Part shown: positions 993 to 11,701 of the stretch, piece by piece
How positions within the stretch are numbered: the stretch's first letter is position 1
Layout: every line of letters starts with the position of its first letter
Assembly (NCBI GenBank): GCA_965208675.1
Contig: OZ242351.1
Span: forward strand, 288,001-352,000
DNA: 64,000 bases
Source of the DNA: Candidatus Poribacteria bacterium
GTDB taxonomy: Bacteria; Poribacteria; WGA-4E; PCPOR2b
Reading direction: 5' to 3'
Translations under genes and position numbers: made by a program
Notes under the pieces: generated by a model
The model's input: only the letters and a program-made list of their open reading frames with translations
Databases searched by the model: none
What the model was told of the DNA's origin: nothing

Positions 993-1429
993 AGTTTCTC
1001 TCTTCTCTATGAATTACGGCGATTAAACCAAAATGCGCCTAACCTCAAATTATAGTTTAAACACTGATCGAAATTCAAGGCGAAAATAGGTGCCAATTCG
1101 CCGACTAAATGGGACCGAAGGTCAGTGGCAACAGACGATTGGGGATTCAAAATAGGCGGCGATTGATCGCATTCTACCGCTGGCGGTTTAGCGTCAGCTA
1201 AATGACTGTATTTTGTTGTTGCTTCTGCACGCCGTTTATGATATATTGTGAATTATCTGCGTTTGTGCCGTGTAGCATTGCCGGTTAAAATTTTGAAAAA
1301 AGATTCGTCACTGAAGTAAATGAGAGGCAGGCGATTTAATTGATTTTTATTCACGATGCAGGACCTCCGTAGTGGTTCTCAAAAAAGGGCAAGACATTAC
1401 GGAAGTTGAAATCCGAAAGGAGTTTCGCG

Positions 1430-2446
1430 ATGCGGATGAAATACACAACGGCCCTGTACATGGTAACGCTCATCTCTGCAGCGTTATTTTACGGAATGAT
1501 GCTAAGCGAAGTGCTTGCAGAGGCGCCCAAGGATGAACTGATTGCGTTCTCGACAAATCCAGTTCAGGAGAGTGGTATCTGGTTGATGGATCCTGATGGT
1601 AAGAACCAACGTGCACTTTTAGTAATTGAGGGGAAACCAGTGCCGCTCGGGTTGGTTTGGTCGCTAGACGGAACCCGGATTGCATTTCACACAGAAATAA
1701 ATGAAAACATTGATGTTTATGTAGTTGATGCTAATGGTCAAAATCTTTTGCAGCTCACCAATCATGAGGCGGAAGATAGCTGGCCAACATGGCATCCGGG
1801 CGGTCAGAAACTCGCCTTTTGCTCCAACCGCGATGGTAATTATGAAATTTATGCGGTCACATTGGCTGGACAAGGATTGGTCAACCTCACCAACGACCCC
1901 GTTAGGGACAGAGAGCCGGCATGGTCCCCAGATGGCCGAAAGATTGCCTTCGCTTCCAAGCGAGGCAAGAGCCTAGGAGATATCTGGGTGATGGACAATC
2001 ATGGCGGCAACCTTCAAAATCTTACAAATGTCCGTGGTCAAGACTTACAACCTAGATGGTCGACGGACGGTGAGAAGGTTGGGTGGACCTCGCGTCGTGA
2101 CGGCTCGGAGGAGATTTGGGCAATGGACGCAGATGGTGCCAACGAGTTGAAAGTCAGCAGCAAGCAAGACCCAAATCCCGGCGGCAGTTTCGACTGTTCA
2201 GAGCCAAGTTGGAAACCCAACGGTAAAGAGATTGCGTCAACCGCGCTAGGCGGGGGTAGTGCAACTATCCGCATTCACGCTGCGAACGGTAGTCTACAGC
2301 GGTTAGACCTTACACGCCAGGGCAAGCAAAACCGTTCTCCCGCGTGGTTTGACCCAGACTTCGTAGTTGTGGAATTTTCGGTATCCCCAGCCGAGAAACA
2401 GGTTTTAACGTGGGGTTGGCTCAAGCGGATGGGGCGGGAAAATTGA
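1430..2446 (+). CDS. Secreted TolB-like (PD40 repeat) beta-propeller protein, paralog 1
   Basis: AGGAG RBS before ATG at 1430; signal peptide; repeats WSLDGTRIAF, WHPGGQKLAF, WSPDGRKIAF; C-terminal FSVSPAEKQVLTWGWLK tail. Confidence 0.85.
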   Translation: MRMKYTTALYMVTLISAALFYGMMLSEVLAEAPKDELIAFSTNPVQESGIWLMDPDGKNQRALLVIEGKPVPLGLVWSLDGTRIAFHTEINENIDVYVVDANGQNLLQLTNHEAEDSWPTWHPGGQKLAFCSNRDGNYEIYAVTLAGQGLVNLTNDPVRDREPAWSPDGRKIAFASKRGKSLGDIWVMDNHGGNLQNLTNVRGQDLQPRWSTDGEKVGWTSRRDGSEEIWAMDADGANELKVSSKQDPNPGGSFDCSEPSWKPNGKEIASTALGGGSATIRIHAANGSLQRLDLTRQGKQNRSPAWFDPDFVVVEFSVSPAEKQVLTWGWLKRMGREN

Positions 2447-2510
2447 AACGCTCCCAGCCACTCAATTTTCGGCCTCCCCCTTATCAAAACTCGCTTCATG
2501 ACGCCAAGAA

Positions 2511-3572
2511 ATGAGGCGGTCTATGCGATTTAAAAACACATTGTCCATTCACATGACAGTGTTCGCTGTTGTTATTCTTGCTGGCTTTTTCACGCTGGTC
2601 GGCGCATTTGCGCAAGCACCCGATAGGGCAACTATTGCATTCTCCACCAACGACGAAGCCCAAGGCGGCATCTGGTTGGTAGACATTGATGTGCGCGGTG
2701 GACAGGGAAAAGGCGATGTGCATGTCCAAAATCAGCGCGTGCTTCTGGCAATTGACGGAAACCCTATTCCATTGGGTTTGGTGTGGTCGCCGGACGGGCG
2801 AAGAATTGCCTTCCATACGGAGATTGATGAAAATATTGATGTCTATGTGGTCGACGGCGATGGACAGAACCTGCGTCGACTCACCGACCATGAAGCGGAG
2901 GATAGTTGGCCGAGTTGGCATCCGGGCGGTGAAAAAATTGCGTTTTGCACTAACCGAGATGGGAATTTCGAAGTCTACGTGATGTCGTCAACTGGGCAGG
3001 GGTTATTCAATCTCACCAACGACCCCGCCAAGGATAGGGAACCCGACTGGTCGCGAAACGGCCGCCTAATCGCATTTGCTTCCAAGCGTGGAAAAAGCCT
3101 GGGGGATATATGGGTGATGGATAGCAGCGGCGGAAACCTGAAAAATATTACGGATGTCCGCGGTGAAGATATGCAACCTAGATGGTCATGGGACGGTCAG
3201 AAAATTGCTTGGACATCTCGCCGAAACGGGAACGATGAAGTTATGACGATGGACGCCGCGGACGGCGGCAACCTACTAAAGATTAGCGATCTCAAGGATG
3301 CAAGATCGCAGGGGCGGCCCAATCGGGAACCGAGCTGGAAACCCGACGGCAGGGCAATCGCCGCGCCTGCCCTTGGCGGTGGCAAATCGTTCATCATGAT
3401 ACATCCAGCAGATGGGAGTTTGCAATGGCAGGACCTGCCCGCTGTAGGCATTCAAAACCGTTCCCCGACATGGTTCGATCCTGAGTATGTTATAGAAGAA
3501 TTCTCCGTATCCCCCGCCGAGAAACAGGTCTCAACGTGGGGTTGGATTAAACAGACGGTACAAAACAATTAA
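2511..3572 (+). CDS. Secreted TolB-like (PD40 repeat) beta-propeller protein, paralog 2
   Basis: Signal peptide (AFA-Q); PD40 repeats; tail FSVSPAEKQVSTWGWIK. Start may be ATG 2523. Confidence 0.85.
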   Translation: MRRSMRFKNTLSIHMTVFAVVILAGFFTLVGAFAQAPDRATIAFSTNDEAQGGIWLVDIDVRGGQGKGDVHVQNQRVLLAIDGNPIPLGLVWSPDGRRIAFHTEIDENIDVYVVDGDGQNLRRLTDHEAEDSWPSWHPGGEKIAFCTNRDGNFEVYVMSSTGQGLFNLTNDPAKDREPDWSRNGRLIAFASKRGKSLGDIWVMDSSGGNLKNITDVRGEDMQPRWSWDGQKIAWTSRRNGNDEVMTMDAADGGNLLKISDLKDARSQGRPNREPSWKPDGRAIAAPALGGGKSFIMIHPADGSLQWQDLPAVGIQNRSPTWFDPEYVIEEFSVSPAEKQVSTWGWIKQTVQNN

Positions 3573-3652
3573 CGTATTTCTCGTCATGAATGTACCTGAA
3601 AACCCTGGTCTCCAATCCGCTTAAAGGCTTGGAGTTCGAAAGGAGATTAGCT

Positions 3653-4633
3653 ATGCGCGTGGTTACATTTGTAGCTTTCGTGCTCCTTGGCGGCATGTTA
3701 GCAAACGTGGAGTCGGCAGAAGCACCCAAAGAAGAGACGATGGCGTTTTCCACCAATCACGTTGGGGAAGGCGGCATCTGGTTAATGGACCCTGACGGGG
3801 GTAACCAACGCCCGTTTCTGGCAATAGGCGGGAACCCAATCCCGCTGGGTTTAGTGTGGTCTTCTGACGGCAGCAAAATTGCCTTCCATACGGAAATAAA
3901 TAAAAATATAGACATCTATGTGGTTGATGCCGACGGGCAAAATCTTCGGCAACTCACCGACCATGAGGCAGAGGATAGTTGGCCGACCTGGCACCCCGCC
4001 GGTCAAAAACTTGCCTTTTGCACCAACCGAGATGGGAATTTTGAAATCTATTCGGTCACGTTGATCGGGCAGGCATTGAAAAACCTCACTAATGATGCGG
4101 TTAAGGACAGGGAACCAGCGTGGTCCCCAGATGGTCGTCAGATTGCTTTCGCTTCCAAGCGAGGCAAAAGCCTTGGGGATATATGGGTGATGGATAACAG
4201 TGGCGGAAACCTGAAAAACCTTACAGACGTTCGCGGACAGGACACAGAACCTAGATGGTCATGGGACGGTCAGAAAATAGGGTGGACCTCCCGACGAAAT
4301 GGAAACGACGAAATCTGGATTATGGACAGTGCTGATGGCGGAAATCTGTTGCAAATTTCGGACGTCAAGAACAATAGCGACCCGAATCGGGAACCGACTT
4401 GGAAACCGGATGGCAAAAAAATCGCTTCTCCGGCGCTGGGAGGTGGGTCCGCGACTATTCGCGTACACCCGACAGACGGTAGTCTAAAGTGGAATAACCT
4501 GCAACGCGTCGGCACGCAAAATCGTTCCCCAGCTTGGTTTGACCCGGACTTTGTTGAAGAATTTGCCGTATTCCCCGCCGATAAAAAAGCTTTGACTTGG
4601 GGTTGGCTAAAACAGGCGGGAAGGGAAAATTGA
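3653..4633 (+). CDS. Secreted TolB-like (PD40 repeat) beta-propeller protein, paralog 3
   Basis: AAGGAG RBS before ATG 3653; signal peptide; PD40 repeats; tail FAVFPADKKALTWGWLK. Confidence 0.85.
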   Translation: MRVVTFVAFVLLGGMLANVESAEAPKEETMAFSTNHVGEGGIWLMDPDGGNQRPFLAIGGNPIPLGLVWSSDGSKIAFHTEINKNIDIYVVDADGQNLRQLTDHEAEDSWPTWHPAGQKLAFCTNRDGNFEIYSVTLIGQALKNLTNDAVKDREPAWSPDGRQIAFASKRGKSLGDIWVMDNSGGNLKNLTDVRGQDTEPRWSWDGQKIGWTSRRNGNDEIWIMDSADGGNLLQISDVKNNSDPNREPTWKPDGKKIASPALGGGSATIRVHPTDGSLKWNNLQRVGTQNRSPAWFDPDFVEEFAVFPADKKALTWGWLKQAGREN

Positions 4634-4814
4634 GTCGTATTTCGCAGTGAATTAATCAGACAATGTTCGGTCTGCCGACACCATCGTACCGCGATGATTC
4701 ACCTGCACACAATCTGTCTTTAATTGGATTGACAAGCTGTCGGCAGCTTAACGCTTGTCTTGAACTCGTTTCGAAAATGGTTAACAAGGTTGATTCACCA
4801 GAAAGAGGCTGAAC

Positions 4815-5546
4815 GTGCAAATTCTCCATCTTGAAGCGGGTACGCCGTTCAAAATGGGACAGGGGCAAAACTGGCGCGTCGTACATCCAGACATGGGTGC
4901 CAAGCAACTGACGCTAAATCACGGCGTGCATGCACCAGGGCAAGAATTTACACAACATTTCCACGACAATTCTGAGGATATGATTGTGGTTCTTGAAGGC
5001 GGAAGCAGCGTGCGCCAGGGAGATGTCTACACACCCGTTTCGGCAAGAGAAGCTATTTTTGTTCCGGTCGGCGAGGTTCACGGCACAGTCAACGATACGG
5101 GCAAAATGGCGCGCCTCATCAGTTTCCAATCTCCGCCGGACATGGCGCTATACCGCGGCGAACGCGATCACGCTCCCAATCAAATCCCTAAACCCAAACA
5201 CGGCCACCAAAGCGCCGTGCAGGTTGTCGACATGGCGCGGAGCGGCCCAGTTTTTGGAAAATCGGGCGACTGGCGTTGTGTAATCTCGCCAGAGCGAGGA
5301 TCGAAACACATCTCGCTTGAGTATATACGGCTGTCTTCGGGTGAAGGATTTGAACACGAACACGGTGCCGCAGAAGCTATTTATGTGCTGGTCGATGGCG
5401 AAGCTGAAGTCAAAGCCGGCCGCCAGACATGGAACTTGGCCGCGAAAGATGTTATTTTTCTCAAACCGGAAGAATCTTGCTCGATTTCACCGGTTATAGG
5501 CGGTCAGTTGCTTACATTGTTGCATTGTCGGGCTGTCGGTGGGTAG
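4815..5546 (+). CDS. Bicupin (two cupin_2 domains) protein
   Basis: First cupin has HFHDNSED...EVHG metal motif; second has HEHGAAEAIYVLVDG. Confidence 0.75.
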   Translation: MQILHLEAGTPFKMGQGQNWRVVHPDMGAKQLTLNHGVHAPGQEFTQHFHDNSEDMIVVLEGGSSVRQGDVYTPVSAREAIFVPVGEVHGTVNDTGKMARLISFQSPPDMALYRGERDHAPNQIPKPKHGHQSAVQVVDMARSGPVFGKSGDWRCVISPERGSKHISLEYIRLSSGEGFEHEHGAAEAIYVLVDGEAEVKAGRQTWNLAAKDVIFLKPEESCSISPVIGGQLLTLLHCRAVGG

Positions 5547-5634
5547 TATTGTGCAGAAAAACTAAAATTTTGTGGCAAAATTTGCTTACGCCCGTGATTT
5601 GACATTGCGCCTGGACGAAAACGAGTAGCATTCA

Positions 5635-6432
5635 GTGGTGCTGATAACAAAAAAGGAGAAATCCAAAATGCTGACAGAAGTGCAGGTGGAGGCTTATAAA
5701 CGAGATGGCCATGTCAAAGTTGAGGGTGTTTTTACTCCGGAGGAGATTGAAGAACTCAAGAGCGAGATGATTCGGATTATTGAGGAGTGGGGTGAAGAAA
5801 CCATCGGATGGCACGGTCCGTGGCGTGACCGCTATTTGCCCGAGGATGAACGCCAGAACACTAGGGCTGTTCTTCTTCATAGACCCCACTATTATTCATC
5901 GGCTTGGGGGCGTGTCCTCTTTCACCAGCGTTTAATTGGCTGCGTTCAAGCATTAATCGGTCCCAATGTCCAGTGGCATCACACATGTCTGCATGCGAAA
6001 CCGCCGGAGTTGGGTACGCCGTTCCCAATGCACCAAGATTATCCCTTTTACCCGCACGACGGTCCAGACTTCGTGGATTGCCTAGTTCACCTTGATGACA
6101 CACCGCTCGAAAGCGGCTGTCTTCGAGTGGTTCCGGGCAGTCATAAGCACGGTCCGTTGGAACACATCACAGGTTCACATACCTCACCCCATCTCCCTCC
6201 CGAAAAATACCATCCGGACTAGGTTGACTCGGTCGCTGTCCCCGCAAAGTCCGGTGACGTGATTTTCTTTAGTTACTATACGATTCACTGGTCCGGCGTC
6301 AATCGGACGCACGAATGGCGAAAGTCGGTGCGATTCGGCTATCACGCGCCCGAGATGCGCCCGGTCGGGAGTGATCCGAGCCAACCTTACGAAAATATCA
6401 TTACCGGCGGCTTTAAAGAACATAAAGCGTGA
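5635..6432 (+). pseudogene. Phytanoyl-CoA dioxygenase (PhyH) family Fe/2OG dioxygenase interrupted by one in-frame TAG (6220-6222)
   Basis: HQD motif and GCLRVVPGSH lie before the stop. The same frame continues VDSVAVPAKSGDVIFFSYYTIHWSGVNRTHEWRKSVRFGY to TGA 6430-6432. Likely start is ATG 5668 after AAGGAG. Confidence 0.8.
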
Positions 6433-6589
6433 GTCGAAACGGCGCAATGCCGCTTATACGCTGCCCACCACCCACCACCAGTCCATATTAAAGTCGCATT
6501 TCGTTTCTGTTTGACGCGCGGCAGCACACCCCGTTAATCGTTCAGTTGAATGAAATTTCCCACGGCGTGGAACACTAAGTCGAAATCCA

Positions 6590-8251
6590 ATGAGTCAGAA
6601 TTTATCACAAGCGCACCGTGACGCGGTGAATCGGAGCCGGCGAGTAATTGTCAACTACGACACCAATTTCGGGGCTCCGTCTGTGATTTGTCCGTTGGCT
6701 GGCATGGAAATAGATCGCTTAGTGAAGGGCTACTTCAGCATGATCGATGAAGCCGGCGTCCAGATAGACAGCATCTGGTGGTGTTGGCTGGACGGCAATT
6801 TCGCAAATTATCCGAGCCAGATTCTACCCGTTTGGCAACTGCCCGGATTCCAGCAGTGGTGGGATGCCGGAATTGACCCGGTGCAGATCTTCGCCGAGGA
6901 GACCAAGAAGCGCGAAAAAGAAGTTTTTTTCTCTTACCGCCTGAATGGGACCGATATGGCGAGTGTCGTACCGTTAAGTGTGCCGTTATTGAAAGAAGCT
7001 CACCCCGAATGGTTAATCCCTACTTGGGAGGCGTTTCGAAATCCCGGTTACTGGAACTTCACCGTGCCAGAAGTGCGCGATTACAAGGTGAGAATCCTAC
7101 GCGAGGTGGCGGAAAACTACGATTACGACGGTATAGAGATAGACTTTTCTAGGGTACCTGTAACACTGCCGCCCGGACACCAATGGGAGAACCGAGAGTG
7201 CTTGACCGAATTCATGCGCGCCGTTCGGGCCATGACGCTCGAAATCGAAAAGAAACGGGATCATCCGTTTCTGCTGGCTGCTCGAATTCCGGAGAACCTA
7301 GAAGGTTGTCATTTTGACGGGATGGATGTTGAAACTTGGGCGAGCGAAGGCTTGCTGGATATCTTCGTTTTGGGCAATCGCTCATTCGACGTGGATATCT
7401 CCGCTTTCCGTCAAATCACGGCAGGGACCGGGATAAAGCTCTATCCGTGCATGGACGATCATCACGCGACGGACGGTTATCTGCATCCGCCAATCTCAGT
7501 TTTCCGCGGCGTTTTTGCCAACTGGTGGCATCAAGGTGCGGATGGCATTCAGACGTTTAACTTTAGCAATTGGACGCCGGCTGGTGCTGCACTTCTCGGT
7601 TGGGATGCGATTGACCCCGTGTGGGCGGCGCACCTTCAAGCGTACCGGGAGATGGCAGTTCCGGAGTCGCTCAAATACAAGGACAAAACTTTCGTTGCCG
7701 AACGGCGTGGCGGAGGGCATGGCCCGGTGGTTGTGCCCAATCCGGAGGATTGGACGACACCGCGGTGGATGTATTTTATCACAAATATGTTTGCTCCGTT
7801 GCCAGCCGCTCTCGCGAACGACGGAAAAGCCGACACCCTGTTAAAGCTCTACGTCTCCGATAACCTCGCAGATGAAGCCAATCACATTGAGCGGGTTACG
7901 GTTCGCGTTTTGCTGTCCGATCCGGGTGCGGAACGCCTCCCGTCCAATCAGCGGCTTCAGGTCGTCACCGTTGCAACCAAGGCGCACACCCTCCAAAACA
8001 TCCCCCCAGCAGTAGGGATTGGCAACCAAACTGAGCTAAGGCTAAACAACACTCTCCTGCATCCCCCTGTAATTGAAGAAGGCTGGTTAGCCTTTTCAGC
8101 GCTACCAAATCAATTCGCTGTTGGCAACAACCTCATTGGATTGCGCGTCACCGGCCGGGCGCAAGATGCCCAAGCCGAAATCCTGATTGAGAAGTTGGAA
8201 GTCCATGTAGTCTACCACAAACCCACAAAGGACAGAAAAAACCGAAAATAA
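6590..8251 (+). CDS. Glycoside hydrolase-like 10 (GHL10/DUF187-type) TIM-barrel protein
   Basis: WNFTVPEVRDYKVRILREVAENYDYDGIEIDFSR and GADGIQTFNF motifs. Confidence 0.6.
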   Translation: MSQNLSQAHRDAVNRSRRVIVNYDTNFGAPSVICPLAGMEIDRLVKGYFSMIDEAGVQIDSIWWCWLDGNFANYPSQILPVWQLPGFQQWWDAGIDPVQIFAEETKKREKEVFFSYRLNGTDMASVVPLSVPLLKEAHPEWLIPTWEAFRNPGYWNFTVPEVRDYKVRILREVAENYDYDGIEIDFSRVPVTLPPGHQWENRECLTEFMRAVRAMTLEIEKKRDHPFLLAARIPENLEGCHFDGMDVETWASEGLLDIFVLGNRSFDVDISAFRQITAGTGIKLYPCMDDHHATDGYLHPPISVFRGVFANWWHQGADGIQTFNFSNWTPAGAALLGWDAIDPVWAAHLQAYREMAVPESLKYKDKTFVAERRGGGHGPVVVPNPEDWTTPRWMYFITNMFAPLPAALANDGKADTLLKLYVSDNLADEANHIERVTVRVLLSDPGAERLPSNQRLQVVTVATKAHTLQNIPPAVGIGNQTELRLNNTLLHPPVIEEGWLAFSALPNQFAVGNNLIGLRVTGRAQDAQAEILIEKLEVHVVYHKPTKDRKNRK

Positions 8252-8306
8252 CATAAAGAGTTTAGCCATTTACATCATGTTTACACACACTGAAATACCC
8301 CCTGAT

Positions 8307-8328
8307 AAGGGAGTTGGCATCCCTTTTT
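8307..8328 (+). terminator. Possible intrinsic terminator
   Basis: AAGGGA-GTTGGCA-TCCCTT followed by TTT, downstream of the GHL10-like gene; short stem. Confidence 0.35.
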
Positions 8329-8380
8329 GATCGGATTATTCTGTGTAAATTTCGGTTGCGGCGACTTTAGGAACAAAAAC

Positions 8381-9484
8381 ATGGATCTTACGGACGCGAA
8401 ACTGCAGTTGGAGGATGAAGGGTATTGCGTACTGGAAAATCAACTCGACCCGCGGCAAGCTGAACACCTCGACACCCTCGCACGGACCTTAATGGAACCC
8501 CGTGACGGGTATATCAGTATGGAGACCTCTCTGAATCACATTCCTGAGTTGGCTCCGCTGTGCATTCATCCCACGCTAGTAAAACTTGCTGAAAAGATGC
8601 TGGGGAAGGACTTTATACTAGCGAACAATGTGGCGATGAAATGGTGCAAGCCCGGTGCGCCGGAAGGACCGTTGCATTGGGGCGGACGGTTCAAGGATAT
8701 TCCCCAATTGACAGAGTTTCAGGTCTTCTGGATGCTCACAGACTTCACCGCAGAGAACGGTGCTACGCTTGCCGTTCCGTTTAGTCATCACACCGGGCGT
8801 CCGCCCGGACGCACTGCCTATCCCCAAGAGATTCCGATCGTCGGAGCAAAAGGGTCGGTGTTGATCTTTGACGGAAGGATTTGGCATCGCAGCGGCGCCA
8901 ACACAACGAGCGGCAAACATCGTATGGCTGCCAATATGATGTATCTGCCCGGCAGCGTCGATCGCGGCGGAGAGTGGCCGCTGGTGGCGCGAGAACGCTA
9001 CCATGAATTCCCGCCGCAATTGCAAGGCATGCTTCCGCAGTCAGTTGCGCCGCCGGATACGACGCCAGCCGCCGCGCAACGCCCACTTATATGGACTATG
9101 CTCGACTATCAGGGCGTTAAACACGCCGCGGGCGGAAAGCTTGCGGTGAACTTAACCATTAAATCAGGTTCCGAATTCTCGACCGCAGTACGCTTTCCGC
9201 AAGCGTCCGCGTTGGAAGTAAAACAGACGAGGGATTGCTGGGTGTTCCTAGAGCGAGCCCGGGCAATTGGAGGAAATGCTGAGGTCGAACTGTACGTAAA
9301 CGATGCGAAGGTTTCACATTTCACAGTCGCCGTGGGCGAAAATGACGCACAAGTTCAGTCCTTAGCGGAGCAAGTGACCTCACGGATAACCGATACATCG
9401 GTGCTTTACAAAATCACGCTCAAGAACATAGGCGGTCACGACGTGCGAATCCGCGAACTTCGCCTCCAATGGCTGGCGAGCTAG
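8381..9484 (+). CDS. PhyH-family Fe/2OG enzyme with H-W-G in place of HxD, plus a C-terminal domain of unknown function
   Basis: EDEGYCVLEN, FWMLTDFTAENGATLAVPFSH, GSVLIFDGRIWHRSGANTT..R; about 140 extra aa after a PPDTTPAAAQ linker. ATG 8381 preferred over TTG 8327. Confidence 0.8.
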   Translation: MDLTDAKLQLEDEGYCVLENQLDPRQAEHLDTLARTLMEPRDGYISMETSLNHIPELAPLCIHPTLVKLAEKMLGKDFILANNVAMKWCKPGAPEGPLHWGGRFKDIPQLTEFQVFWMLTDFTAENGATLAVPFSHHTGRPPGRTAYPQEIPIVGAKGSVLIFDGRIWHRSGANTTSGKHRMAANMMYLPGSVDRGGEWPLVARERYHEFPPQLQGMLPQSVAPPDTTPAAAQRPLIWTMLDYQGVKHAAGGKLAVNLTIKSGSEFSTAVRFPQASALEVKQTRDCWVFLERARAIGGNAEVELYVNDAKVSHFTVAVGENDAQVQSLAEQVTSRITDTSVLYKITLKNIGGHDVRIRELRLQWLAS

Positions 9485-9511
9485 AGCATTATCAGAACCG
9501 CTGTATTATTC

Positions 9512-9655
9512 CACCGCGGGGGAGGGTGACCTCCATGTCCGGACAATCAGGCCTAGAAATCCTCTCCCACATAGGGTAGTCCTCCTGTGTAATTCAAACT
9601 TCAATCCCTCCGTACCAAGGAGGAGGGAGGTCATGGTAGGATGCACCGTGATCCG
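9512..9655. repeat. Degenerate REP-like palindromic cluster
   Basis: GCGGGGGAGGG...CCTCTCCCACA and TCCCTCC...GGAGGGA inverted segments and a GGTAGGATGC motif between convergent genes. Confidence 0.3.
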
Positions 9656-9689
9656 AATTTTGAATCGTCCTAAATAATCTGAACCGTTA

Positions 9690-10307
9690 TCAGTTTTCTG
9701 AAGCGTGAATTTGACACGTAAAGTTTTTGTCTTCCGTTACGATACGGTCCAACGGGACATCCCACGGCTGCGGCAGTGTATCTTTAACGAGCTGTTCCTC
9801 AAAAGCGAGTCCAATCCTAACTGCCTTTGGGCATTGGCGGAGAAACCGGTCGTAATAACCGCCGCCGTATCCGAGGCGGTGACCATTCTTGTCAAATGCA
9901 ACGCCGGGGACAATAATTATCTCAATCTGATCTGGCGGAAAGGCCTTGCAGGAATTCCGGTCTGGCTCGCGCATACCGTAAGGGTGGGAAACGAAATCTG
10001 TTTGTAGGTTCGAAATATGGTGCGGATTTAGTGTTCGTCGGTGGGTATCCGTCACCGGGGCAAGCGCAGTTTTTTCGTGCGTGAACAGATAATCAAGCAG
10101 TCCATCGGTTTCCACTTCACTCCGCATACTTAGATAAAGCTGAACCGCGTTAACCGCGTTGTCCTCAATCCAATCAACAACCCGGTTGATAATCCTCTGG
10201 CTCAATTCAGACCTTAACGCCGGGGGTATACCGTCGCGTCTACGAATCGCTTCCGCGCGAAGACATTTTCTCGATTGTCTTTCGCTGTAGTCCGGTGTTC
10301 TCGCCAT
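9690..10307 (-). CDS. ygfA: 5-formyltetrahydrofolate cyclo-ligase
   Basis: IIVPGVAFDKNGHRLGYGGGYYDRFL signature; DVPLDRIVTE. Confidence 0.92.
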   Translation of the reverse strand: MARTPDYSERQSRKCLRAEAIRRRDGIPPALRSELSQRIINRVVDWIEDNAVNAVQLYLSMRSEVETDGLLDYLFTHEKTALAPVTDTHRRTLNPHHISNLQTDFVSHPYGMREPDRNSCKAFPPDQIEIIIVPGVAFDKNGHRLGYGGGYYDRFLRQCPKAVRIGLAFEEQLVKDTLPQPWDVPLDRIVTEDKNFTCQIHASEN

Positions 10308-10342
10308 TATTTTGAGATTTCAACCTAACTGTGAGCCACGAA

Positions 10343-11701
10343 TCACGCGTCCCATTCAATCTGGCCAATATTCTTGGTGAGTGCGTCGCGGAAGGTTGAG
10401 GGTTTCATCTTGAGAAGTTTCGCTGCCTGAGTTTTGTTTCCGTTCGATTTTTTCATCGCCCACGCGATAAGATCGCGCTCGGTGGAACGGATAATGTCAT
10501 GAAATGATACCTCGCTCATTGAATCATTCAGACGAATATGGGTTCCGAGTTTCAAATCTATCGGAATTGCGTCGGCTGTGATTTCCCTTCCGCCGCTAAC
10601 CGCTACGAGCCGTTCAACCATGTTTTCAAGTTCGCGTACATTGCCGGGCCACGGATATCCCGCCAACAGTTCAACAGCTTGCGGGGTGATGGGGATAGGT
10701 TGATTTGGAGAAAACAGTTCCAAGAAGTGATTGATGAGAAGCGATATGTCTTCGGCGCGCTCCCGCAGCGGCGGCAGAAAGATTGGGACAACATTAAGGC
10801 GATAAAACAGGTCCGCTAAGAACGCACCGTTTTGCACCTTCTCCCGTAGATTCTCCGTTGTCGCTGCAATTACCCTGACATCAACCTCGATTTGCGCGTC
10901 GCCGCCAACACGTTCAAACGCACCAAATTCCAGTGTGCGCAGGAGTTTAATTTGTAAACTCATAGGCAGCGAATCTGGATCATCTAGGAAGAGCGTCCCC
11001 TTATGTGCTAATTCAAATCGTCCAACCCGGCGCTGCTCCGGCGGACACTCACGGCCGAACATCTCAAGCTCCAACATCGCCTCCGAAACGCTTGCACAGT
11101 TGACAGACGCGAAGGGGTGATGTCCGCGCGGACTATTGAGATGGATGGATTTCGCCAGAAGTTCTTTCCCTGTGCCGTTTTCACCGGAGATGAGCACATT
11201 GGCGTTTGATTCCGAAATCGTCTCAATCAAGTTAAGTATTTCCTGCACAGACCGGCTTTTTCCGATGATGTTTTGATAAATGCGCCACGGCTCAAGGTGG
11301 GACGTCTGGGGGTGGGGTTCAAGCCCGCCTTTGTCTATCCCGTCCCGAATCTCCTTTAGTTTATCCAGCATAGCAATCAATTCGCCGCTCGAAAATGGCT
11401 TCTTGATGTAGTTGTATGCCCCCCATTTCATGGCTTCGACAGCAGTTTCCACGCTGGCATAAGCCGTCATGATAATCACTGTGACGTGAGGGTGGTCCTT
11501 TTTGACGCGCTTAAGAAATTCGATGCCGTGCATCTTCGGCATGCGGAGATCTGTCACGAGAACGTCGAAGTGCTCATTCTGGAATAACTGCAGCGCAATC
11601 GCCGGGGACTCCACCGCAATTGTGTCGTAGTTTTCCTCACGCAAATCGTCTCGCAGCGTGATGCGTTTAATTTTTTCGTCGTCAACAACCAGTATTTTCA
11701 C
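10343..11701 (-). CDS. NtrC-like response regulator (REC-AAA+-Fis HTH), lacking the GAFTGA loop
   Basis: ILVVDDE and TDLRMP receiver; GENGTGKE Walker A; DLFYRLNV; WPGNVRELEN; GNKTQAAKLL HTH. Confidence 0.9.
   Translation of the reverse strand: MKILVVDDEKIKRITLRDDLREENYDTIAVESPAIALQLFQNEHFDVLVTDLRMPKMHGIEFLKRVKKDHPHVTVIIMTAYASVETAVEAMKWGAYNYIKKPFSSGELIAMLDKLKEIRDGIDKGGLEPHPQTSHLEPWRIYQNIIGKSRSVQEILNLIETISESNANVLISGENGTGKELLAKSIHLNSPRGHHPFASVNCASVSEAMLELEMFGRECPPEQRRVGRFELAHKGTLFLDDPDSLPMSLQIKLLRTLEFGAFERVGGDAQIEVDVRVIAATTENLREKVQNGAFLADLFYRLNVVPIFLPPLRERAEDISLLINHFLELFSPNQPIPITPQAVELLAGYPWPGNVRELENMVERLVAVSGGREITADAIPIDLKLGTHIRLNDSMSEVSFHDIIRSTERDLIAWAMKKSNGNKTQAAKLLKMKPSTFRDALTKNIGQIEWDA

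Follow-up and report, generated by a model that had tools for sequence, protein, structure and literature searches.

A poribacterial clade of PhyH-type proteins has lost the HxD carboxylate under purifying selection and may act as non-canonical Fe/2OG oxygenases

A 64,000-nucleotide stretch of Candidatus Poribacteria bacterium DNA (NCBI GenBank assembly GCA_965208675.1, contig OZ242351.1, positions 288,001 to 352,000 of the forward strand; GTDB lineage Bacteria; Poribacteria; WGA-4E; PCPOR2b), referred to here as the window, contains a gene for a 367-residue protein in which a PhyH-type Fe(II)/2-oxoglutarate (2OG) domain is followed by a linker and a beta-sandwich domain (Table 1). The first iron-binding motif of this protein reads H99-W100-G101 in place of the canonical HxD. 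The loss of the carboxylate is real, old and selected, being common to a clade of relatives that we name HWGG after the motif. We favor, at a probability of roughly 45%, a reading in which the protein is an Fe/2OG oxygenase of non-canonical type whose substrate is carbohydrate-like.

Conservation of the missing aspartate

A word-index search with the protein returned 45 homologs, and an exhaustive search of representative sequences returned 1803 at E up to 0.001, with 13 at E up to 1e-30. LHW-GGR is present in every close relative of the resulting alignment A1 (P0002-P0011), down to 61% identity, and HWGG is fixed in all 14 distinct rows of the clade, which were drawn from several sources. Among 176 genomes of the phylum, the full-length 367-residue form is confined to the window's genus, where four of four genomes have it, and the orthologs in all four read HWGG. 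Their Gly101 codon varies synonymously, being GGC in the source genome itself (L001) and in L002, and GGA in L003 and L004. Pairwise dN/dS among the four congener loci (method NG86) is 0.07-0.12 in the PhyH domain and 0.10-0.23 in the C-terminal domain, at dS of 0.2-0.93, which indicates purifying selection on both.

A first-pass annotation of this DNA, made from the sequence alone, had correctly read H-W-G (CAT TGG GGC) at the first iron-binding motif, an intact distal His and 2OG-binding Arg (here H169 and R181), and a Pro/Thr/Ala linker followed by a beta-rich tail. It had also allowed for a private mutation or a sequencing error, since GGC is one base away from GAC; the protein would then be an ordinary HxD hydroxylase. 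This explanation is refuted, because HWGG is conserved across clade rows of several origins, the glycine codon varies synonymously under purifying selection, and the loop carries a deletion. The GGA of two congeners lies two changes from GAC, and the loop HWGGRFKDIP after H99 is remodeled and 4-5 residues shorter than the HADWPLxG loop of canonical HxD relatives. We regard an error as having next to no chance of accounting for the motif.

The rest of the predicted active site is retained. H99 is invariant in all 46 rows of A1 and in 78 of 78 rows of the set used for the tree described below. In the 38 rows without the HxD aspartate, H99, H169, R181, T123 and D121 are each present 38 times out of 38, at pairwise identities that fall to 49% and with 52 of 223 columns invariant. 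The roles of H169, as distal iron ligand, and of R181 are assigned from alignment and spacing, and T123 we take to be the contact to C1 of 2OG. The loop after H99 is highly variable across sister lineages (HW-GG, H-GGG, H-NGG, HCCPAD). Four residues past H99, R103 is specific to the HWGG clade (14/14), and canonical members have Ile, Val, Met or Leu there.

Asp-less relatives and a relocated carboxylate

The first-pass annotation placed the gene in a lineage rich in PhyH paralogs, and this was borne out: the 4.89 Mb genome has 85 PF05721 matches, in agreement with PMC3909097, according to which PhyH proteins of unknown function make up ~2% of poribacterial genes. A profile derived from A1 was used to tabulate the motif in paralogs from the same genome (79 open reading frames, ORFs), related loci and representative hits. 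Almost all tabulated members read HxD. Within the close subfamily, recognized by the signature FWMLTDFT ... WHRSGANTT.DQHRMAAN, the Asp-less forms are HWGG; HSAGGS, HSAGES and HSAWAA; HGGG, HNGG and HGAG; and HCCPAD. Our full-text literature searches found no description of Asp-less poribacterial PhyH clades, which Tables S10/S11 of PMC3909097, covering PhyH clusters, could list.

A quick IQ-TREE phylogeny was built from 78 rows, 70 of them from the family (profile score 340 or higher) and 8 as outgroups. The set omits rows in which under 205 columns were filled, identical cores, the two-domain protein P0098, a duplicate of the query and the broken sequences P0038-P0040, and the motif-loop columns were excluded from the tree. 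The Asp-less rows fall into two groups, one of HSA forms (18 rows; Shimodaira-Hasegawa-like approximate likelihood-ratio test, SH-aLRT, 95) and one uniting HWGG, HGG and HCC forms (20 rows, SH-aLRT 94), in which HWGG is a single clade of 14 rows (SH-aLRT 90). A tree that forces all 38 Asp-less rows together, a group defined only after the tree had been inspected, has an approximately unbiased test p-value (p-AU) of 0.605 and a log-likelihood 4.5 units better than the free quick tree. Since the constrained tree is not rejected, the placements are compatible with what was possibly a single ancient loss of the aspartate.

In the sister clades, an acid appears elsewhere. Counting back four residues from the distal His (position H-4), Asp is found in 17 of 18 HSA rows and in all six HGG/HCC rows, together 23 of 24, and in the 40 canonical HxD rows the residue there is never acidic (N in 30, G in 8, S in 1). 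When 275 aligned rows were reduced to 190 distinct motif combinations, by dropping rows without both His residues and repeated motif pairs, an acid stood at H-4 in 12 of the 21 combinations that have no acid at +2 of the first His (two of the 21, P0084 with D at +3 and the split P0146, are probably alignment artifacts) versus 0 of the 169 that have one. A relocated triad of this kind, H-X-G...E-X3-H, is described for the sugar oxygenase HygX (PMC13374393). The pattern suggests that family members without the HxD acid have usually moved it and not opened a site for halide.

HygX, the Fe/2OG oxygenase that forms the orthoester of hygromycin B (PDB 4xc9, 4xca, 4xcb, 4zpi), is thus an instructive comparison. 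It belongs to the PhyH superfamily, acts on a sugar and has Gly at +2 of the first His, as G101 here, and the HSA and HGG/HCC sister clades share its pattern with Asp at H-4. HygX is not a close sequence relative, being absent from the profile matches listed for this gene, and it has no counterpart of the extra C-terminal domain; the HWGG clade, for its part, lacks the HygX triad, since its H-4 residue is Gly (14/14) and its H-5 residue Asp. By parsimony, the tree suggests that HxD gave way to H-x-A/G...D-x3-H and that the H-4 Asp was then lost in the HWGG lineage. Asp-Asp at H-5/H-4 in the sister proteins P0013, P0016 and P0030 offers a path by which the ligand could have slipped by one residue.

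Two acids could complete the iron site of the HWGG clade. D164, at H-5, is Asp in 14 of 14 rows; position 112 is E in 14 of 14 HWGG rows and D in 18 of 18 HSA rows, and in the 40 HxD rows it is mainly G, L, I or M. E112 may lie in the second sphere or serve as an alternative ligand. D194 and E198 are likewise clade-specific acids. The Asp in RFKD, D106, which the first-pass annotation had named as a possible substitute, is Asp in 13 of 14 HWGG rows; it is an unlikely compensating ligand, as P0011 has Gln there and keeps HWGG. On alignment evidence, either a non-standard acid completes the site or the site is truly a 2-His one.

Several further variants were encountered among the homologs. The one HSA row without Asp at H-4, P0027, looks chimeric, with an HSAW-type N-terminal half and the YHNGLWH...HRMFANIYY C-terminal half of the HADWPT clade, and could be an assembly chimera or a product of gene conversion between paralogs. 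The metagenomic proteins P0021 and P0033 have H-C-C-P-A-D at the proximal His, that is, two Cys and an inserted PAD, together with Asp at H-4, which makes an odd metal-site variant. A subgroup of P0112, P0121, P0140, P0184, P0074 and P0120 reads HVG, HCT, HVS, HAT or HIT or has no His, with no acid at H-4 or H-5, and may hold further non-canonical iron sites or inactive forms. Five distant paralogs in the source genome combine HGG, HGS or HAT with [E/D]-x3-H before the distal His. For one of them (C1:229015-230043, HGS...E-x3-H), the best PDB match is HygX (4xc9/4xcb, E 1.3e-8), with its E-x3-H aligned to NEALMH of HygX. These paralogs make up a HygX-like relocated-triad subfamily in a genome with no obvious orthosomycin cluster.

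Fold of the oxygenase domain and its closest known systems

The ATG at 8381 matches the N-termini of homologs in alignment, and the 367-residue protein has no N-terminal hydrophobic signal. At E up to 0.1, no Pfam family other than PhyH is matched. In residues 182-367 there are zero Pfam matches, and NCBIfam gives nothing above cut-off. The PhyH fold itself runs beyond the Pfam match to about residue 222-230 by VIA-align (model range 1-220/230). An AlphaFold2 model of the whole protein has a mean predicted local distance difference test score (pLDDT) of 81.5, and the greater part of residues 1-220 exceeds 90. The N-terminal domain is modeled as a double-stranded beta-helix with N-terminal helices of the PhyH type. 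The top structural match by VIA-align is SptF (7eyu_B; Z 24.6, 216 residues aligned, 2.3 Å), and matches to solved oxygenases span Z 24.6-22.4 over 213-230 residues at 2.1-3.7 Å; Foldseek gives E 3e-14. Profile searches point the same way, with DhiD, SptF, PrhA, EasH, AusE and FtmOx1 matched at E 1.8e-31 to 1e-24.

The nearest relatives in both sequence and structure are thus HxD oxygenases. All 50 structural matches listed are classed as such, the aminoglycoside oxygenase KanJ among them, and HxD was read directly in the DhiD and SptF alignments. The fungal PhyH-type oxygenases DhiD, SptF, PrhA/AusE, AndA, FtmOx1, AsqJ and TlxI/J and the bacterial KanJ are the nearest solved relatives of the N-terminal domain (profile E 1e-31 to 1e-12). 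They have the motifs LTDFT..NGAT..PGSH and WH..G.N...R in common with this protein, differ from it by identities of 17-24%, and have no C-terminal beta-sandwich. No halogenase is among the 50 structural matches that VIA-align lists for the full model, which leaves relatedness possible. In the profile search, SyrB2 gave a match of 51 residues only (E 4e-4).

A CBM-like beta-sandwich at the C terminus

The C-terminal domain, modeled alone from an alignment of nine rows (A2), is all-beta (pLDDT 84.9, predicted TM-score 0.79). A VIA-align fold search against 48,161 chains matched the carbohydrate-binding domain of BcsB (6yg8_A; Z 11.5, 112 residues, 2.5 Å), a carbohydrate-binding module (CBM) of family 36 (7ay3_A; Z 10.5, 100 residues, 2.2 Å), the CBM of XynJ (Z 10.4, 102 residues, 2.8 Å) and CBM6/35 entries (Z 9-10, 101-106 residues, 2.4-2.8 Å). 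Taken together, matches to CBM6/35/36 modules span Z 9-10.5, with 96-106 residues aligned at 2.2-2.8 Å. Foldseek concurs, with CBM36, CBM6 and lectin-like jelly-rolls. As leads only, the ESM Atlas gives a best score of 0.79 and CBM_35_2 at best 0.76. The first-pass annotation called this domain novel; that holds for the sequence, which belongs to no Pfam or NCBIfam family, and not for the fold, since residues ~239-367 are predicted to form a known CBM6/35/36-like beta-sandwich. Compared with CBM6/35/36 and the BcsB domain, the jelly-roll is the same, the identity is 10-18% with no sequence-family match, and the fusion partner here is a cytoplasmic-type oxygenase and not a glycoside hydrolase.

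Across the 176 genomes of the phylum, the domain is found in four, all of this genus, and always fused. A word-index search with the domain alone returned one near-identical fragment only (P0192). The first-pass annotation had asked whether the glycine is conserved together with the C-terminal domain. The glycine is (14/14), and the pairing is not, as the HWGG proteins P0011 and P0009 do not have the domain. It follows that the aspartate was lost before the fusion. Stand-alone homologs also exist, and L040, the sole one with genomic context, directly precedes the gene of a secreted enzyme with LamG and GH32 domains.

Weighing the oxygenase reading and its alternatives

We infer a two-domain, apparently cytoplasmic protein in which a PhyH-type Fe(II)/2OG oxygenase is joined to a CBM-like beta-sandwich. 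It would be catalytically competent, an oxidizing enzyme of the hydroxylase, oxidative cyclase or demethylase type. Iron would be bound by H99 and H169, and the third position would go to one of the nearby clade-specific acids (D164 or E112), to a water molecule or to an anionic substrate group. The beta-sandwich would help to hold a carbohydrate-type substrate, which is hinted at by the CBM-like fold, by the GHL10 gene directly upstream in a syntenic block and by the position of L040 beside LamG+GH32.

A number of observations weigh against this reading. At the iron site, H-4 is Gly (G165) throughout the HWGG clade, so the HygX pattern is not present. The D/E-G-R sequence at H-5 to H-3 is shared by 56 of the 169 canonical HxD combinations, in which the D164 analogue cannot be the primary carboxylate ligand; D164 was for that reason not accepted as an obvious relocated ligand, and it is perhaps a mere structural corner residue. 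E112 is not common to the HGG/HCC forms, which have R in five of six rows. No carboxylate of the protein is demonstrated as an iron ligand. The clade has neither of the two known carboxylate positions filled, so that a true 2-His site is fully possible. As for the substrate, the CBM-like assignment comes from fold at ~10-18% identity, and beta-jelly-rolls are common; sharing the fold by itself shows no function. Stand-alone metagenomic homologs of the domain have N-terminal hydrophobic or signal-like segments and this protein has none, and the carbohydrate context of a stand-alone homolog is a single case.

The first-pass annotation had instead proposed a radical halogenase. Among Fe/2OG halogenases, SyrB2, of PhyH fold, has HxA, and WelO5 and BesD have HxG. 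The protein resembles these enzymes in that its first motif has no carboxylate and its distal His and 2OG-binding Arg are retained, and SyrB2 in addition by the Pfam PhyH fold and the weak local match noted above. It differs from them in showing no close homology, in being encoded apart from any carrier protein or biosynthetic cluster, and in offering D164 and E112 as possible alternative acids. The conserved absence of the carboxylate is the part of the proposal that stands; the use of HxG/HxA as a signature does not, being unsafe in this family.

A free-standing 2-His radical halogenase, binding halide at an open iron site, passing it to a substrate radical and recognizing its substrate by the beta-sandwich, would explain why HWG and G165 are both fixed (14/14), leaving both known carboxylate positions empty, unlike in the sister clades. 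H99, H169, R181 and T123 are retained under purifying selection, and the clade-specific R103 could favor an anion. PhyH-fold halogenases exist, the organism is sponge-dwelling and so exposed to seawater halide, and HXG/A is treated as an accepted halogenase motif in a mining preprint (PMC12871659). That same text warns of HXA/G false positives. The motif predicts poorly within the family, given that the missing +2 acid is compensated in 23 of 24 sister-clade rows, and the invariant clade-specific D164 and E112 may ligate iron. Human aspartate/asparagine beta-hydroxylase, AspH, has an HXG...H two-His iron site and is a hydroxylase (PMC12816917), so a 2-His site need not halogenate. The likeness to AspH is at the motif level only; it has another architecture and belongs to another 2OG-oxygenase family, whose Pfam family is unmatched here. 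Beyond the 51-residue SyrB2 match, no link to a characterized halogenase clade was found; no carrier protein, non-ribosomal peptide synthetase (NRPS), polyketide synthase (PKS) or other biosynthetic gene is among the Pfam hits in the first 22.6 kb of the window, where the context resembles glycan processing, and the post-H99 loop differs greatly from one sister lineage to the next. HygX-type relocation, two-His hydroxylases, the false positives of mining, and a context and CBM-like domain pointing to carbohydrate all make it unsafe to conclude from HxG that the protein is a halogenase, and we hold the halogenase to be doubtful. A more specific history, in which the HWGG proteins became 2-His enzymes by a two-step loss of Asp, first the canonical and then the relocated one, and now have a site open to halide or another anion, we likewise judge improbable.

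It could also be that the protein is non-catalytic, a PhyH-fold binding module or an auxiliary to a canonical paralog, with the beta-sandwich adding ligand binding. Precedent comes from TlxI, which is catalytically incompetent and assists TlxJ (PMC12141560), and TlxI/J chains are among the top structural matches; D177A/G variants of PAHX are inactive in vitro (PMC12816917). The loop after H99 varies widely between sister lineages, a canonical HQD PhyH gene lies two genes upstream in conserved synteny, and all 11 family f2 genomes, like the source genome, keep a related HSA paralog in conserved tandem with a canonical one. TlxI, however, has lost its 2OG-binding Arg, whereas here R181, T123 and both His residues are kept in 38 of 38 rows; such retention at identities down to 49% is hard to account for if metal and 2OG are not bound. 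The dN/dS of ~0.1 shows constraint, though not catalysis. An obligate partnership with the upstream HQD paralog is itself unlikely, because that paralog is broken by a nonsense codon while this gene is intact. We consider a non-catalytic role unlikely overall.

Genomic context

In four of four congeners the gene closes a block of three PD40 genes, a bicupin, the HQD PhyH gene and GHL10 (Table 1), and beyond it, on the opposite strand, lie a folate cyclo-ligase and a two-component system. Pfam hits of 15 ORFs across window positions 3-22628 include no carrier protein, NRPS/PKS or other biosynthetic gene, and the locus looks like one of glycan processing and not of natural-product halogenation. 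The stretch is also found in contigs of sponge-metagenome runs from several other studies; no RNA run is listed among those that contain it. A promoter and terminator scan of positions 4500-10400 gave counts no higher than those in shuffled sequence.

The neighboring paralog at 5635 is canonical HQD, as the first-pass annotation had it, with the qualification that it is interrupted by an in-frame TAG. Position 6221 is G in contigs of three runs from other studies and A in the run holding this exact DNA, and the 75 codons past the TAG are still 89-99% identical to congeners. The TAG is a recent nonsense mutation or marks a strain-specific pseudogene. A second PhyH match with an in-frame TAG lies elsewhere in the genome (C1:146810-147160). 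Between the ortholog and the folate cyclo-ligase, congeners carry ~2.2 kb with two minus-strand hypothetical ORFs (L035 9744-11573; L037) that are absent here and uninformative as to function; one ORF of the insert encodes a repeat-rich protein with GKDG motifs and a membrane helix at its N terminus. Genome G034 has a second, partial copy of the cyclo-ligase.

Away from this locus, a canonical HxDWPL PhyH gene is directly followed by an HSA...D-x3-H paralog in 11 of 11 family f2 genomes and in the source genome, and adjacent HxD/HSA pairs, judged by coordinates only, are found in three congeners. The arrangement suggests a coupled function or a heterodimer. The surroundings of the pair in this genome (TonB receptor, ADP-ribosylglycohydrolase, M3 peptidase) are uninformative. 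The TonB-dependent receptor is read as two consecutive ORFs (L042 4303-6090, plug and barrel, and 6130-6780, barrel end; G000:C1:3708302-3710779), a split that may reflect a frameshift or a stop.

Table 1. Features of the gene and its surroundings (window positions unless a genome contig is named; residue numbers refer to the 367-residue protein)
Feature	Position	Strand	Remarks
Three tandem PD40 beta-propeller paralogs	1406-4633	+	60-70% mutually identical; syntenic, order kept in 4 congeners
Bicupin protein	4815-5546	+	Syntenic
HQD PhyH paralog	5635-6450	+	Cut by TAG at 6220-6222; TGG (Trp) in three congeners
GHL10 glycosyl-hydrolase-like protein	6590-8251	+	Directly upstream; syntenic in 4/4 congeners
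Whole coding sequence, 367 residues	8381-9484	+	PhyH-type Fe/2OG domain, linker, beta-sandwich domain
Pfam PhyH (PF05721) match, residues 11-181	8411-8923	+	E 7.9e-16, 59.4 bits, cut-off 22
H99-W100-G101 (CAT TGG GGC) replacing HxD	8675-8683	+	HWGG in 14/14 clade rows
E112	8714-8716	+	Acid specific to Asp-less clades
D121-F122-T123 of LTDFT motif	8741-8749	+	Invariant in Asp-less and canonical members
D164-G165-R166 corner ahead of distal His	8870-8878	+	G165 is H-4, D164 is H-5
Distal iron-binding His H169 (CAT; IWHRSGAN)	8885-8887	+	Conserved in 38/38 Asp-less and 40/40 HxD rows
R181 (CGT), presumed 2OG C5-carboxylate-binding Arg	8921-8923	+	His+12, usual PhyH spacing
Pro/Thr/Ala-rich linker (SVAPPDTTPAAAQRPLIW), ~residues 221-238	9041-9094	+	Low model confidence
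Predicted C-terminal all-beta domain, CBM6/35/36-like / galactose-binding-like jelly-roll	9095-9481	+	No Pfam family; from model and fold matches
HygX-like paralogs	G000:C1:229015-230043, 1863899-1864840, 1560715-1561527, 214994-215899, 1323279-1324127		
HxDWPL + HSA tandem pair	G000:C1:3712053-3713511 (L025, L042); L006-L014, L016, L017		

Implications

One poribacterial PhyH subfamily has abandoned the HxD carboxylate, and most of its members, quite apart from the HygX-like paralogs of the source genome, appear to have rebuilt a HygX-type relocated triad. The clade of the gene described here has neither carboxylate position filled and is still under strong purifying selection. Together these proteins form a natural series, canonical to relocated to carboxylate-less, that could be used to probe what decides between oxygen and anion transfer at a non-heme iron center. 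Genome mining that relies on HxG/HxA will wrongly label PhyH-fold proteins as halogenases. Should the protein nonetheless prove to be one, it would be a free-standing radical halogenase of independent origin, tethered to a CBM-like module and able to halogenate a glycan or glycoconjugate in a sponge symbiont. On the oxygenase reading that we prefer, the fusion of PhyH and CBM-like domains points to oxidative glycan chemistry in sponge symbionts.

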